64,000 nucleotides of DNA from Candidatus Latescibacterota bacterium. Lineage in GTDB: Bacteria; Latescibacterota; UBA2968; UBA8231. Below the pieces are notes generated by a model, which made no database searches, was not told the origin of the DNA, and worked only from the letters and a program-made list of their open reading frames with translations. The DNA is taken from positions 1,984,001 through 2,048,000 of the forward strand of contig OZ241867.1 in assembly GCA_965203175.1 (NCBI GenBank), written 5' to 3'. This document shows, in pieces, positions 53,735 through 60,721 of this stretch (its first letter is position 1; the number at the start of each line of letters is the position of its first letter). The position numbers were made by a program, and so were the translations under genes.

Positions 53735-53835
53735 TCACTCCCGATTCGCTATGTGCAACTCCCACAACTGCTCGGGCGACACCTCGCTCGGCGCACCCAT
53801 GAGCGGATCCTGCGCATTCTGGTTCATCGGGAAGG
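53735..53835 (-). repeat. 101-bp copy of aspS 3' end (direct repeat of 56058-56158)
   Basis: Aligns by eye with 4 mismatches; the copy includes the stop codon. Confidence 0.9.
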
Positions 53836-53837
53836 TG

Positions 53838-54098
53838 TGTTGCCGACGCCCTCGCGAGCCTTCTGCACCAGCAGCCGGACGGCATCGAGCTGGTACTAAC
53901 GCGGGAAGATCATCGTACTTCCTTCCAGAGGTAGGCTGTCCGATAGCTGCGGCCTACCGGATCGTGTGGATTCCCGGAACCGCCATCACATCCCTTGTCG
54001 AAGGGCAGGAAGTAGGTTGCGTCGCCGGCTAGGCGCGTGGTCGTGCGCACGTATTCGGTATCGACGGCAAAATGGACGAGTGTGCGCCGTTTGAACTC
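53838..54098 (-). pseudogene. hsdR internal relic
   Basis: Matches hsdR 47283-47643 with substitutions, small indels and a deletion of about 97 bp. Confidence 0.85.
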
Positions 54099-56057: not shown

Positions 56058-57818
56058 TCACTCCCGAATCGCTATGTGCAACTCCCGCAACTGCTCGGGC
56101 GACACCTCGCTCGGAGCGCCCATGAGCGGATCCTGCGCATTCTGGTTCATCGGGAAGGCGATGACCTCGCGGATGTTCGGTTCGTCCGCCAGCAGCATGA
56201 CGATGCGGTCGATACCGGGCGCGATGCCGCCATGGGGTGGCGCGCCGTAGCGCAAGGCGCGGATCATGCCGCCGAACTTGCGATCCACTTCTTGCTGCGA
56301 GTGCCCGGCAATCTCGAACGCCTTGTACATGATGTCTGGTCTGTGGTTGCGGATGGCACCGCTCGACAGTTCGAGGCCGTTGCAGACGATGTCGTACTGA
56401 TACGCCTTGATCTCCAGCGGTCGTTGCGTCTCTAGCGCAGCCATGCCGTCCTGTGGCATGGAAAACGGGTTGTGCGAAAAGGCCACACAAGCGCGTTCTT
56501 CGTCCCATTCGTACATGGGAAAATCGACGACCCAGCAGAATTCATAGCAACGCTCCCGCCGCAAATCGAGCCGGTCTGCCAGATGCAGGCGCAACCGTCC
56601 CGCTATGGACGCTGCCTCGGCTGGCGGTCCGGCGATGAAGAAAATGGCTGACCCCGGAGCGGCTGCACACTGCTCGATGACGCGGCTACATACGGTCTGT
56701 TCCAGCGCGGCGGCGATTGAGCCGGTGGCCTGCGCTCCGTTGATGAGGTACGCCAATCCCTTGCCGCCCGCCTCTTTGACGAATGCTTCGAGGCTATCGA
56801 AAAACGAGCGCGGCTGCGCTTCCAGTCCGGGAACGCACAGGGCGCGGACGACCCCTTCTGCTGCAACGATGTCCCTGAACAGCCTGAACGAGGATCCCGC
56901 GAAAATCTCGGAGAGGTCTTGGATTTCGAGCGCGAAGCGCAGGTCTGGTTTGTCCGTGCCGAACCGCAGCATGGCGTCGACGTGGGAAAGACGCGGGAAC
57001 GGCGGTGCGGTCACTTCCCAATCGGTGAACTCGCGGAAGAGACCGGAAAAGAGTTCCTCGACCACTGCGAAGACATCCTCTTGCTCGACAAAAGCCATCT
57101 CGAGGTCGAGCTGGTAGAATTCGCCGGGGGAGCGGTCGGCGCGGGCGTCTTCGTCGCGGAAGCAGGGCGCGATCTGGAAGTAGCGGTCGAAGCCGGACAC
57201 CATCAGCAACTGTTTGAACTGCTGCGGTGCCTGCGGCAGCGCGTAGAAGCGGCCGGGATAGAGCCGGCTCGGCACGAGGTAATCGCGCGCGCCTTCGGGC
57301 GAGCTGCTAGTGAGAATGGGCGTCTGGAACTCGGCAAAGCCCATCTTTGTCATGCGCCGTCTGATGCTGGCGATCACCTCCGAGCGGAGCTGAATGCGGC
57401 GGTGCAGTCCGGCCCGGCGCAGGTCCAGGAAGCGATAGGACAAGCGAGTACTCTCCCCCACGTCGGGATCTTCGGCGACGGAAAAGGGAAGTGGCTCTGC
57501 CAGCGAGAGCACTTCTAGCTCGCGCACGGCGATTTCCACCTCTCCAGTCTCCATGGTGCTGTTGATAGTCTCAGGCGACCGCTTGCGCACGTCGCCTACG
57601 ACGCGGATGACGGATTCGCGGGGGACCTTTGACGCGGTTGTCGCAACGTCATTCTCTGGTGAGATCACGAGCTGGGTAATGCCGTAGTGGTCGCGCAGGT
57701 CTAGGAACAATATGCCTCCGTGGTCCCTTTTGCGATGAATCCAGCCGCTCAGGTGGATGGTTTGGCCGGCGTGACGCTTGCGGAGTTCGCCGCAGGTGTG
57801 GGTGCGATAGCGGTGCAT
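56058..57818 (-). CDS. aspS: Aspartate--tRNA ligase, probably non-discriminating Asp/Asn
   Basis: [51 protein letters not shown]. Confidence 0.97.
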
Positions 57819-57845
57819 GGTAGCCTCCAGTTTTGGATGTACATG

Positions 57846-57882
57846 AAAAACCCGCCGTCGGCGCGAGGCTCAACGGCGGGTT
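57846..57882 (-). terminator. Attenuator terminator 2, proximal to aspS
   Basis: AACCCGCCGTTG...CGACGGCGGGTT-TTT, 27 nt before aspS ATG. Confidence 0.85.
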
Positions 57883-57902
57883 GGGGTGCGGGTAGAATCC
57901 GA

Positions 57903-57992
57903 TCACGGCCAACGCCATCGAGCCCGAATGGCGGGGTTATTATCGTTATTGTTAGCAAAGGCGTAGGCCGTGTGATTGTAGCGGAATGTCAT
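57903..57992 (-). CDS. Leader peptide 2: MTFRYNHTAYAFANNNDNNPAIRARWRWP
   Basis: AGGAG RBS 8 nt upstream; AAC AAT AAC GAT AAT AAC run; followed by terminator. Confidence 0.8.
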   Translation of the reverse strand: MTFRYNHTAYAFANNNDNNPAIRARWRWP

Positions 57993-58005
57993 TGCAAAAG
58001 CTCCT

Positions 58006-58046
58006 AAAAACAGAAAACCCGCCGCGATGCGTGTTCGCGACGGGTT
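58006..58046 (-). terminator. Attenuator terminator 1, distal
   Basis: AACCCGTCGCGA-ACACGCA-TCGCGGCGGGTT-TTCTGTTTTT. Confidence 0.85.
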
Positions 58047-58072
58047 GTGAATTCTTGGGTTGGATTCAGTCG

Positions 58073-58138
58073 TCAGAACACGCGCAATGGGGCTAGCGGG
58101 TTATTATTCTGTGTGCGGTCGTTCTGACGAGTTATCAT
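58073..58138 (-). CDS. Leader peptide 1: MITRQNDRTQNNNPLAPLRVF, likely leaderless
   Basis: AAT AAT AAC run plus AAC GAC; ATG 8 nt after -10 box; followed by terminator. Confidence 0.75.
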   Translation of the reverse strand: MITRQNDRTQNNNPLAPLRVF

Positions 58139-58146
58139 AGTCGTCT

Positions 58147-58174
58147 AAGATAGAGGAAGGCCGGATCCCGTCAA
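58147..58174 (-). promoter_or_regulatory. sigma70 promoter of aspS leader
   Basis: TTGACG-16 nt-TATCTT. Confidence 0.7.
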
Positions 58175-58201
58175 GCCAGACTGGGCCGCGCTTGCTGGTC
58201 T

Positions 58202-60721
58202 CTACAGCCCGAACCAGCGGTTGAGCTTGATCAAAAAGATGCTGTCGCCATCGTCGGCGAAGGCGCGGCTCAAGTCGCCGGCGGGGCGGAACCTCGGGTC
58301 GCTAACGTCGTCGAAGGCGCGGTCGCGGCTCTGCTGCCAGACGGCGAAGAGCGTGCTGCCGGGTCGGTACTCCCAGCGCAGCACTGCGTTAGAGCGCAGT
58401 GAGCGGCGGCGAAAGTCCGGGTTTTCTTCAAGGCCGGCGTAGGGTGAGAATTCGTAGGACCGTGGGCGCGCCAGTTCCTTGATGGCACCGTAGTCGCCGG
58501 TTGTCGCGAAGGGCTGCGCGAACAACTGCAAGCTCAGACTCGGCGTGAAGGCCCAGGTGACGCGCACGCCGATCTCGAAGACGCGGCTTTCGAGCTCGCC
58601 GAAGATGAAGTGGTCGTCCTCGCTGTCGCCGTCCTCGTCCTTGTTCTCTACCCACTGGGCGAAGTTGCGGTTGAAGTTGTAGCCCGGCTCGATTCCCAGC
58701 TCAAACTGGGATACGGGGCGCAGTGCGATTTCAAAGCCGACCCACGATCCCAAGTTGTCGCCTCCCCGGCTCCCGCTGATGTTCCAGCCGAGCCAGCCGC
58801 TGATGGGCTTGCGGTCGTCAGTCCACACGTCCATGCCAAACCAGGTGTGGGCGGGCGAGAGCATGAGCGGTCCGCCGCGAGTGGCCAAGTCGTCAAAGGC
58901 GGCAAAGTTGCGGCTGAGGCCCATCCAGAATCCCCAGTAGTTATGCAGGTTGTGCCAAGTGTTGAAGTTGATGCCGCGGGACAGCCGCTCGCCGGCGAAG
59001 TTCCAGTGGTTCCAGACGTTGACGTTGAACCCGGAGCGGCGGGCGAACCAGTAGGGGTCGAGCTTCTCGTGATAGATGTGGGCACCGGCTTGGATGCGGT
59101 CGTTGCGCCGCATAAAGCCGAGGTCGTTGGCCTCAAAGCCGGGCGACTGCGCGTCCACGTACGCTTGGCCGCCGAAGGCACCGCCCGTTTTCTGAAAGTA
59201 GAGCGCGCCCTCCCAGCCGGTGTCGCGTTCCTTCTCCTGCCCAGCGCGACTGACGGCGAGCCGGCTGTAGAGGCGGTAGGCGTTCTCCCACCACTTGACG
59301 TGCAGGTCGCCGGCACCGACGTAAGCCGGGTCAAAGCCGCGGCCGTTGACCGCAGTGAGTTGGGCTCCAGCGGTGGAGTTGGTGAGTAAATCCTGTTGTA
59401 CGCGACCGATAAAGTAGTTGGTGATCGGCTCGATCTCGACGTCGCGGCGCAGCGTATCGATGCGGCCTGTCTCAGCGCTGGTGATGCGCTGGTCGATGCG
59501 CGCTTCCTCCCGGCCGGTGACGGCGTTGAGCAGGCCAAAGGCCGTGCGTCCGGCGGTCTTTCCCGATACTTTGACGGCACCGAGGATGGTGGTGTTGTCG
59601 GGACGGTCCACCTCGTTGCTGTCTTCGGGCAAGTCAAAGCGCGAGGGCGGTCGGCCAATGCGCCGCGAGTGGAACAGGCGCGTGGGCCGGCGGATGCCGA
59701 CGATGAACGGCGTCGGCGATTCAAAAATCTGGATGCCCTCTAAAAAGAAGGGCCGGCGCTCGCGGAAGAAGGTCTCAAAGACGCCCAGATTGAGCACGGC
59801 TGGGTCCCCCTCGATCTGGCCGAAGTCCGGGTTGATGGTGGCGTTGAGAGAGATGTTCGACGATAGGCCGTAGCGCAGGTCGAGGCCGGCCGAGGAGAAC
59901 AGGTCGTGCTCGCTGTCGCTGTCTCCCGGCGACAGGGTGCTGCGGCCTAGCGCGAAGGGGAAGATCTCGAGGCTGCGCTGTGGCCGGATGCCTTCGATCC
60001 CTTCGAGATGACCGAAGCGCGAGACGTAGCCGCTGACGCCCCGAGGTTTGAAGCTCCACTGTGACCACTCGGCGCGGCGGGAGATCTTGCGAAAGACGTT
60101 GATCCCCCAAGTATAGCTCTCCTTTTCGCCGAAGCGCAGGACGTGATAAGGGATCTTCAACTCCAGGCTCCAGCCGTCAGCGCGCCGCGCCGTCTTCACC
60201 TCGGCCACGCTGTCCCAGCTATCGTCAAAGTCGTCGTCGTTGTAGATAATCCCGTCCCCGATCCAGCCTGAGGGACCCACGACGAAGTAAACGCCTGTCT
60301 GATGGTCGTGGTGGGGGTCGAGGTTGATCTCGAATAGGTCGCGCTCGCGCCACTCGTCGCGCCGCGCCAGCCGCGTGGTGATGCTGTCGGGATGGGTGTC
60401 GTAGCAGATGCCGGCGATGTAGAGGGCGTCGTCGTCGTAGGCCACCTGAAAGGTAGTGCGTTGCGTCGAAGGCTGGCCGTTGTCCGGGTCGTTTTGCGTA
60501 AACCCCTCGTGTACGGGTGCGCGCAGCCAGATTTCGTCGTCGATGACGCCGTCGAGACGCGGCGGCACCTCGGCCCGCACGGCGCGGGCGGTGCGCTGGG
60601 GGTGCGTCATCCAAAACTGCATCTGGGCATCGCTGGTGTCGGCCCGGGCGGGTTGCTCATCGGCTGCGGCTGCCTCGGAGATGAGAAAAGCGGCGGCTAG
60701 CACTGCCGCAAACATGTGCAT
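58202..60721 (-). CDS. CBM9-like + DUF5916 outer-membrane protein
   Basis: PRLDGVIDDEIW, WSLELKIPY..LRF, ATINPDFGQIE, ERRPFFLEG, LFHSRRIG, LRWEYRPGS; signal peptide. Confidence 0.85.
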   Translation of the reverse strand: MHMFAAVLAAAFLISEAAAADEQPARADTSDAQMQFWMTHPQRTARAVRAEVPPRLDGVIDDEIWLRAPVHEGFTQNDPDNGQPSTQRTTFQVAYDDDALYIAGICYDTHPDSITTRLARRDEWRERDLFEINLDPHHDHQTGVYFVVGPSGWIGDGIIYNDDDFDDSWDSVAEVKTARRADGWSLELKIPYHVLRFGEKESYTWGINVFRKISRRAEWSQWSFKPRGVSGYVSRFGHLEGIEGIRPQRSLEIFPFALGRSTLSPGDSDSEHDLFSSAGLDLRYGLSSNISLNATINPDFGQIEGDPAVLNLGVFETFFRERRPFFLEGIQIFESPTPFIVGIRRPTRLFHSRRIGRPPSRFDLPEDSNEVDRPDNTTILGAVKVSGKTAGRTAFGLLNAVTGREEARIDQRITSAETGRIDTLRRDVEIEPITNYFIGRVQQDLLTNSTAGAQLTAVNGRGFDPAYVGAGDLHVKWWENAYRLYSRLAVSRAGQEKERDTGWEGALYFQKTGGAFGGQAYVDAQSPGFEANDLGFMRRNDRIQAGAHIYHEKLDPYWFARRSGFNVNVWNHWNFAGERLSRGINFNTWHNLHNYWGFWMGLSRNFAAFDDLATRGGPLMLSPAHTWFGMDVWTDDRKPISGWLGWNISGSRGGDNLGSWVGFEIALRPVSQFELGIEPGYNFNRNFAQWVENKDEDGDSEDDHFIFGELESRVFEIGVRVTWAFTPSLSLQLFAQPFATTGDYGAIKELARPRSYEFSPYAGLEENPDFRRRSLRSNAVLRWEYRPGSTLFAVWQQSRDRAFDDVSDPRFRPAGDLSRAFADDGDSIFLIKLNRWFGL

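Follow-up and report, generated by a model that had tools for sequence, protein, structure and literature searches.

What controls the expression of an additional aspartyl-tRNA synthetase (AspRS) gene, and which signal would be required to switch it on? The question is raised by a contiguous stretch of 64,000 nucleotides of a Candidatus Latescibacterota bacterium (assembly GCA_965203175.1, contig OZ241867.1, positions 1,984,001 to 2,048,000; termed the window in the following, with its first letter as position 1), in which the accessory gene aspS2 is preceded on the minus strand by two short, asparagine-rich open reading frames (ORFs), each followed by a terminator hairpin. The best reading is a tandem of classical, ribosome-dependent attenuators whose codon specificity is new: two leader-peptide transcription attenuators are probably arranged in series before aspS2, as judged from the sequence and its comparison with relatives.

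The gap upstream of aspS2 comprises 384 bases on the minus strand and reaches from the stop codon of a DUF5916/CBM9 gene (852 aa; stop at 58202) to the aspS2 ATG at 57818. A preliminary description of this DNA had reported a promoter (TTGACG-16-TATCTT), two leaders, two terminators and then aspS on this strand: the promoter-like site was indeed found at 58174-58147, and all further elements were recovered at the positions given there (see Table 1). The tandem Asn/Asp leader-terminator arrangement in 58174-57846 is confirmed, and it lies far beyond chance. The consensus scan revealed two promoter-like sites including the aforementioned one, as compared to 0.2 predicted from shuffled sequences; its hexamers and their spacing are retained in most orthologous loci, and the conserved sequence starts approximately 25 nt upstream of the -35 hexamer, also where the upstream gene differs. 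Since the upstream neighbors differ among relatives, aspS2 and its leader region occupy at least two genomic contexts.

Table 1. Positions of the leader, hairpin and gene elements of the aspS2 locus (window numbering)
Feature	Position	Strand	Sequence or remark
Promoter-like site, sigma-70-like	58174-58147	(-)	TTGACG 58174-58169, 16-nt spacer, TATCTT 58152-58147; consensus scan
Leader ORF 1, 21 codons + TGA	58138-58073 (stop 58075-58073)	(-)	MITRQNDRTQNNNPLAPLRVF
Unit 1 segment 1	58121-58130	(-)	pairs with 3' part of segment 2; minimum free energy (MFE) fold
Unit 1 segment 2	58071-58090	(-)	contains leader 1 stop codon; nearly invariant, 26 sequences
Unit 1 segment 3	58019-58042	(-)	antiterminator partner: terminator 5' arm, loop, start of 3' arm
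Terminator 1	58006-58046	(-)	12-bp stem 58046-58035 / 58027-58016, then TTTTCTGTTTTT
Leader 2 Shine-Dalgarno (SD) sequence AGGAG	58005-58001	(-)	8 nt before ATG 57992, canonical
Leader ORF 2, 29 codons + TGA	57992-57903 (stop 57905-57903)	(-)	MTFRYNHTAYAFANNNDNNPAIRARWRWP
Unit 2 segment 1	57956-57972	(-)	MFE fold
Unit 2 segment 2	57904-57925	(-)	invariant in 12 sequences
Unit 2 segment 3	57866-57884	(-)	antiterminator partner = terminator 5' arm
Terminator 2	57846-57882	(-)	stem about 57882-57868 / 57862-57849, T run 57850-57846
aspS2 SD GGAGG + gene	56058-57828 (SD 57828-57824, ATG 57818)	(-)	accessory AspRS, 586 aa

Both leader frames are marked by clustered codons. Leader 1 carries AAC GAC at 58123-58118 and AAT AAT AAC at 58108-58100, leader 2 the cluster AAC AAT AAC GAT AAT AAC at 57953-57936 (NNNDNN); Asn accounts for 4 of the 21 codons in leader 1 and for 6 of 29 in leader 2 (versus 2.9% in the long ORFs of the genome). 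The leaders had been described beforehand as Asn-rich; the Asn clusters are present, but they are mixed with Asp codons. Indeed, the variants of the leader 2 cluster among the relatives (NNNDNN, NNDDNN, NDNDNN, DNDDNN, NSDSNNN) contain Asp, so that Asp codons are a regular part of it. A scan of the 6.58-Mb genome for short frames (up to 70 codons, stop to stop) with at least three consecutive Asn codons yielded 28 cases, two of them being leaders 1 and 2; none of the other short Asn-run ORFs of this genome resembles the two leaders, and no second copy of the attenuator element was found elsewhere in the genome. The ATG of leader 1 lies 8 nt past the -10 hexamer and lacks an SD sequence; as judged by this promoter spacing, its translation probably starts in a leaderless manner.

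The folding of the alternative structures, which had been proposed as a check, resulted in both terminator and antiterminator forms. In each unit, the 1:2 and 3:4 pairings claimed beforehand are parts of the MFE fold (unit 1: -42.7 kcal/mol, z-score -4.66, 0/200 shuffles as good; unit 2: -55.9 kcal/mol, z-score -2.44, 1/200 shuffles as good), and both terminators were detected by a terminator scan; the T tract of terminator 1 extends to 58006. The 2:3 pairings proposed in the same description represent the cores of longer antiterminators, which become the MFE structures when a stalled ribosome is simulated by hiding everything from the 5' end up to and including the first 9 nt after the last Asn codon: in the masked unit 2, the antiterminator reaches -38.1 kcal/mol, and in the masked unit 1 it is equal in energy to the terminator form (-24.9 and -24.8 kcal/mol, respectively). 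In the nascent RNA devoid of the terminator 3' arm, the antiterminators attained z-scores of -4.27 (unit 1) and -4.26 (unit 2), with none of 200 dinucleotide shuffles of the free segment as good in either case. The leader stop codon is located inside segment 2 in unit 1 and 6 nt past segment 2 in unit 2; in consequence, a ribosome reaching the stop would cover segment 2. Among the 14 units examined, the distance from the final codon of the cluster to the start of segment 2 amounts to 9-19 nt (its minimum of 9 nt being imposed by the mask), and the start of the stop codon ranges from 8 nt inside segment 2 to 14 nt past its end.

On the basis of this geometry, the following course of events is proposed. 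The transcript would begin a few bases ahead of leader 1. With an ample supply of Asn-tRNA(Asn) and Asp-tRNA(Asp), the ribosome would proceed to the leader stop and keep segment 2 covered; the 3:4 terminator would form and the transcript would end at approximately 58006. When the charged tRNAs are scarce, the Asn/Asp cluster would stall the ribosome at a distance of 9-19 nt upstream of segment 2, which would then be available for pairing with the terminator 5' arm, and the polymerase would continue into unit 2. There, the same test would be repeated with the SD-led leader, so that only transcripts passing both gates would reach aspS2. AspRS2 would be tightly held off because an excess of Asp-tRNA(Asn) risks mistranslation. 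The logic of the trp, his and pheST attenuators, which had been invoked for the locus, fits the leader ORFs, the codon clusters, the terminators, the mutually exclusive antiterminators and the stall/stop geometry, and it is kept in relatives. The suggested induction by shortage of Asn-tRNA(Asn) is reasonable in principle and needs to be amended in three respects: Asp codons contribute as well, the target is an accessory AspRS, and the second unit is dispensable. That two units in series sharpen or multiply the response is conceivable.

Leader 2 ends with ...RWRWP followed by TGA, both in the window (57903-57911) and in 12 other loci. A Pro-TGA ending constitutes a slow termination context; it would hold the ribosome on segment 2, and the conservation of this ending may simply reflect the overlapping RNA segment 2.

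The conservation of the Asn runs in relatives, also proposed as a check, was examined at every aspS2 locus for which DNA upstream of the gene was available, 32 in number (such DNA is lacking for L127; L017 breaks off within unit 2, and the loci L037, L038 and L039 repeat L019, L131 and L130, respectively). All 32 contain an Asn/Asp-rich reading frame with an Asn/Asp cluster, followed by a hairpin and a T run. Two units are present in 17/32 loci (L007-L017, L022, L123, L124, L126, L131, L138) and one unit in the other 15 (L018-L021, L023, L125, L128-L130, L132-L137); the second unit is therefore dispensable. The frame of leader 1 is retained despite indels (3, 6 and 18 nt long) among the orthologues and broken in L022 only, and its Asn content persists while other residues change (MMTRQNDRTQNNNNPL..., MLTRQKDRTCNNQANSGNNNPL..., MIMMTRQNACTHNNPANPGDNNPP...); leader 2 is retained in 12 aligned loci with a 3-nt in-frame indel. 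In divergent loci, whose AspRS2 proteins are only 62-75% identical, the design is kept while the sequences differ: the leader reads MTNHKNRALNNSNSTNNDNSPMALLRVL in L133 (AspRS2 75% identical) and MQTLRNTLNNRLNADANRRRAGRSVF in L137 (66%), and L138 (62%) again contains two units with MTTNSQNRRNQNACDDNTVAAGFDVF and MRTTYFTSLIHDDNNPNTHVTRTRFRVP. The junctions of the single-unit loci are not uniform: in L018-L021 and L125 the tail of unit 1 joins the aspS SD sequence directly, and in L128 the unit 1 terminator is followed by the spacer that elsewhere comes after unit 2. These differing junctions suggest a repeated loss or gain of a unit among relatives. Unit 2 is not claimed to be a duplicate of unit 1: the pairwise alignment of both revealed short shared blocks only.

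The design was also expressed as a detector rule (an ATG-initiated ORF of 12-45 codons with at least 4 Asn/Asp in 7 codons, including at least 2 Asn, and a hairpin of -12 kcal/mol or below abutting a T run). It matches 29/32 aspS2 loci, missing the cut L017 as well as L134 and L135 (in L124, leader 2 alone passes), as compared to 0/13 aspS1 loci and 1/4000 random 480-nt windows of this genome; a relaxed version of the rule matched 0/76 aspS loci of other lineages. The genus g19 presents a deviating arrangement. In L136, a free-standing leader MTQIRANNNQDHNRTSTGGTAPAG follows an unrelated gene; in L134 and L135, a similar stretch (...VDNNGDNNNQGNNNRTSAGGTATAG) lies at the end of a LysRS gene (522 bits) and in its frame; of the 470 residues seen, the LysRS profile extends to residue 425. 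In L134, L135, L139 and L140 of this genus, LysRS is encoded directly upstream of aspS2 and has a C-terminal, Asn/Asp-rich extension of about 45 residues, after which a terminator follows.

The pairing of the stems was compared across these relatives. In terminator 1 (26 sequences, stem invariant) and terminator 2 (12 sequences) 99.4% of cells are paired; the unit 1 antiterminator is paired in 97.6% of cells in 26 sequences (22-56% in slid controls) and that of unit 2 in 99.0%, the changes in the latter being one-sided (wobble) only. The 1:2 helices reach 89.6-94.4% in unit 1 (89.6% in 18 sequences) and 90.6% in unit 2, the latter again with one-sided changes only; mismatches without compensation occur in these helices, and their covariation is not convincing. 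In L133, a different sequence appears to take the role of unit 1 segment 1. For two pairs of the unit 1 antiterminator, both partners are exchanged (U-A to C-G; L023 and L133), a value attained by 11/500 shuffles. The nascent antiterminator is also better than shuffled sequences in L133 (z-score -2.38), L129 (-3.94) and unit 2 of L138 (-4.00). Of the compensatory stem changes that had been proposed as a further check, the antiterminator of unit 1 thus shows two and that of unit 2 none; covariation as a proof of structure was rejected, the sequences being too similar. The structures are supported by conservation and energetics, and weakly by covariation.

The gene behind the attenuators is indeed an aspS, as noted in the preliminary description, but it is the second, accessory copy and not the sole aspS of the genome. 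Its product is a bacterial-type aspartyl-tRNA synthetase (NF001750, 808.9 bits) that is 44% identical to AspRS1 of the same genome. While aspS1 was found in 41/41 genomes of a first sample covering four families, aspS2 occurs in 33/132 genomes of the class, all of them members of one family (33/76, this genome included; 8 genera) and none among the 56 genomes of the three other families of the class. In the own genus, 20/30 other genomes contain aspS2, and the closed genome G022 of this genus contains a decayed copy (G022:C1:4024543-4025211; 84% identical over residues 371-586, with 2 TGA stops).

For the physiological role of AspRS2, the asparagine pathway of the own closed genome is informative. 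AsnRS (473.7 bits), GlnRS (706 bits) and GatB (570 bits; the presence of GatCAB is taken from this GatB search) were detected, gatCAB being located elsewhere in the genome, apart from aspS2. AsnA gave no match in this genome, and the best AsnB match attained 72 bits versus a cut-off of 267 and spans profile positions 43-172 of 517 only. The tRNA-Asn carries U1-A72, and the tRNA-Asp G1-C72. The U1-A72 pair of tRNA-Asn is named as the GatCAB determinant (PMC4206432), and by the reasoning for Deinococcus, Thermus and Bdellovibrio (PMC2330236 and PMC4206432), such genomes make Asn only on tRNA-Asn via a non-discriminating AspRS and GatCAB. Given the presence of AsnRS, GlnRS and GatCAB and the absence of AsnA and AsnB, asparagine is probably made on tRNA in this genome as well. 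Among the 31 genomes of the own genus, GatB is present in 31, GlnRS in 29, AsnRS in 28 and AsnB above cut-off in 4 (G014-G017). Three of the latter lack aspS2, and six other genomes lack both; a complementarity of aspS2 and AsnB is not claimed, as six genomes lack both and the sample is small and closely related.

Regarding the substrate specificity of the two enzymes, AspRS2 possesses the His (RKRDHGG) and lacks the Gly (RSPETIN) of the motifs in question, and AspRS1 has both His (RRRDHGG) and Gly (RPEGMVN). The respective residues belong to the anticodon-binding domain; in the P. aeruginosa AspRS they are His at position 31 and Gly at position 82, which reportedly decide Asp/Asn specificity (Bernard et al. 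2006). Five PDB chains labelled Asp/Asn have that His, and the Asp-only enzymes of E. coli and T. thermophilus have Leu. Both AspRS1 and AspRS2 may be non-discriminating. AspRS2 would most likely act as an on-demand booster that supplies Asp-tRNA(Asn) and Asp-tRNA(Asp) for tRNA-dependent asparagine synthesis.

Several observations weigh against these interpretations. The detector rule was composed after the data had been seen. Leader 1 lacks an SD sequence, and its leaderless start is deduced from promoter spacing only. The L022 locus has lost leader 1 (no in-frame ATG, an early TAG and a diverged promoter region; unit 2 is intact), and leader 1 of L124 contains only 4 scattered Asn codons. 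With respect to the RNA structures, the covariation is weak, and relatedness by itself may lift sequences above shuffles in the absence of a structure; no pair of unit 2 is altered on either side together with its partner, most stems never vary, and the unit 1 1:2 helix shows uncompensated mismatches in several loci. The nascent antiterminators of L134-L136 are no better than shuffles, and those of L137 and of unit 1 in L138 have a low energy but engage few terminator-arm bases. As to the function of AspRS2, AspRS1 already carries both residues of the non-discriminating type, and 10/30 other genomes of the genus lack aspS2 yet retain GatB; in consequence, AspRS2 would be a supplement that is not required for the pathway. 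Finally, sponge, coral and marine metagenome runs contain the stretch, and four RNA-library runs comprise low-depth contigs from relatives (88-95% alike) whose ends, strand and level are unreadable and which may be DNA; these contigs merely bridge terminator 2 (57000-58036) and terminator 1 (57899-58109), one each.

The principal competing explanation accepts the attenuators as real and differs in the purpose of the enzyme: AspRS2 would be a spare that resists a natural AspRS inhibitor, e.g. an aspartyl-adenylate mimic. According to this scheme, which is modeled on the auxiliary TrpRS of Streptomyces, the inhibition of AspRS1 would lower both Asp-tRNA(Asp) and the GatCAB-made Asn-tRNA(Asn), ribosomes would stall on the mixed clusters, and AspRS2 would be induced. 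The accessory nature and patchy distribution of aspS2 in the family, its decayed copy in G022 and its differing upstream neighbors would suit such a spare, as would the combination of Asp with Asn in the clusters, the plastic region indicated by an island at the aspS2 3' end (see below), and the apparently non-discriminating AspRS1, beside which a second non-discriminating enzyme is not obviously needed. However, the surroundings of aspS2 within the window revealed no genes for biosynthesis or immunity, no resistance feature was identified in the AspRS2 sequence, and most leaders contain more Asn than Asp codons, which fits Asn supply better than an inhibition of AspRS. We consider the resistant spare unlikely, although it is the rival to be taken most seriously.

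Two further explanations question the signal or the translation of the leaders, and both appear highly improbable. In the first, the leaders would be translated and gate the terminators, but instead of the supply of charged tRNA they would sense how fast NAY codons (Asn, Asp, His, Tyr; read by queuosine-modified tRNAs) are decoded, or their ends (...RVF-stop, ...RWRWP-stop) would act as arrest peptides. This is favored by the additional His and Tyr codons of the leaders, e.g. MTFRYNHTAYAFANNNDNN and MTFRHKHTARAFSHNNDDNN, and by the high conservation of the C-terminal leader residues; but the His and Tyr positions vary (Y to H, Y to R), the most divergent leaders keep only the Asn/Asp cluster, and the C-termini are sufficiently explained as conserved because they overlap RNA segment 2. 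The probability is slightly smaller still that the ORFs remain untranslated, the region being either a small RNA or structured leader that contains two ordinary terminators, or else a binding target of tRNA or protein (T-box-like, or in AspRS autoregulation). The missing SD sequence of leader 1 and stems that are conserved without much covariation would be compatible with such untranslated ORFs. Against it stand the frames, which survive indels and strong divergence while the nucleotides change, the canonical and correctly spaced SD sequence of leader 2, and the constant distance of the Asn/Asp clusters from segment 2. Moreover, the Rfam search of 57500-58500 at E-values up to 10 gave nothing above the gathering score (best match: CrfA, 20.9 bits versus a gathering score of 38), and the T-box covariance model had no match in the same region and E-value range; the weak CrfA and P9 matches arise because the terminators drive them.

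Within the preferred reading, i.e. leader-peptide attenuation by Asn/Asp codons, a wider proposal is put forward tentatively and has less than even prospects: the element might be a modular gauge of Asn- and Asp-tRNA charging, in the evolution of which whole units are gained, lost and relocated, with the same-signal tandem as a two-stage gate, the tail of lysS as a sensor, and asparagine regulated at its tRNA-dependent step by classical attenuation. If so, the two-stage gate would provide a near-zero leak and a steeper response, since an excess of Asp-tRNA(Asn) over the capacity of GatCAB would cause mistranslation; in the genus g19, ribosomes finishing the full-length lysS with its 45-residue LysRS tail would sense for the next gene.

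Leader-peptide attenuation is a textbook mechanism, with examples known for Trp, His, Leu, Thr, Ile/Val, Phe, Cys and Pro codons. Full-text literature searches on Asn or aspS leader peptides returned nothing relevant and no description of such an attenuator; in a 2009 screen of Shewanella, the sole entry for aspS is the label "tRNA synthetase leader", with no further information. Leader-peptide attenuators of synthetase genes are known for pheST of gamma-proteobacteria and for trpS and leuS of Streptomyces (PMC1262725). The aspS2 locus shares with them a short leader ORF with cognate codons, antiterminator and terminator hairpins, and a synthetase gene downstream; in contrast to them, it combines Asn and Asp codons, two units in series and a probably leaderless leader 1 in a candidate phylum, and it is directed at a second AspRS with a presumed product that enters the two-step route to Asn-tRNA. 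An auxiliary, indolmycin-resistant TrpRS of Streptomyces coelicolor is reportedly under ribosome-mediated attenuation (said to be the work of Vecchione and Sello, 2010): there as here, a leader-peptide attenuator would hold back an accessory synthetase paralogue, which would be induced once charging of the cognate tRNA drops, whereas the Streptomyces system is said to have a single attenuator, another amino acid and a demonstrated resistance, which for AspRS2 is the rival reading only. In Clostridium acetobutylicum, a tRNA(Asn)-dependent T-box is said to control the aspS-gatCAB operon (Saad and colleagues reportedly described it in 2012); the supply of charged tRNA-Asn would likewise control read-through into the AspRS of tRNA-dependent asparagine synthesis, but that RNA reportedly binds uncharged tRNA directly, whereas the sensor proposed here is the ribosome on Asn/Asp codons.

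For the enzymes, the closest comparison is that with Deinococcus radiodurans and with Thermus thermophilus, in which AspRS2 and GatCAB form the sole asparagine route (PMC2330236 and PMC4206432). With these species, the genome shares AsnRS, GlnRS, GatCAB, two AspRS, U1-A72 in tRNA-Asn and the absence of AsnA and AsnB; unlike their archaeal-type AspRS2, both AspRS are of the bacterial type here, and AspRS1 also has residues of the non-discriminating type. Same-signal tandem designs are known from tandem riboswitches of one ligand. For the tandem arrangement of leader peptides, the mgtCBR leader of Salmonella offers a parallel, with tandem attenuators responding to two signals (ATP and proline; PMC3641672): two short ORFs in one leader each gate transcription, but the signals differ there, whereas both units of the aspS2 leader contain the same type of codon cluster. 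Particular to the present locus are the same-signal tandem, the variable unit number, the accessory bacterial-type AspRS2 and the lysS-tail variant.

An Asn/Asp version of leader-peptide attenuation, placed before the enzyme with which tRNA-dependent asparagine synthesis begins, would fill a gap in the amino acids sensed in this way, and it would show how bacteria with AsnRS and GatCAB, and without an asparagine synthetase, decide when to make asparagine on tRNA. The relatives with one and with two units represent a natural experiment on what the second gate adds. Ribosome-mediated attenuation would be extended to the Latescibacterota, a phylum without a cultured model, and annotation would otherwise miss the two small ORFs and a regulated accessory aspS.

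Further observations concern the surroundings of the gene. On the upstream side, according to the MAFFT alignment, the promoter-like site of L016 is split between its -35 and -10 hexamers by 48 inserted nt that contain an inverted repeat, and no obvious replacement promoter is present in this locus; in L018-L021, L123 and L125, the upstream neighbor is a conserved region with a long imperfect palindrome instead of the DUF5916 gene. On the downstream side, the last approximately 105 nt of aspS2 including the stop codon are duplicated about 2.2 kb away (53738-53845 and 56058-56165, minus strand; approximately 95% identity by eye), and between the two repeats lie a 317-aa ORF that matches no family and a 252-aa gene of the AbiJ / Abi_C-like kind. 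The arrangement resembles an island whose insertion at the 3' end of aspS2 regenerated the end of the gene. A similar stray fragment is present in the genome G003.

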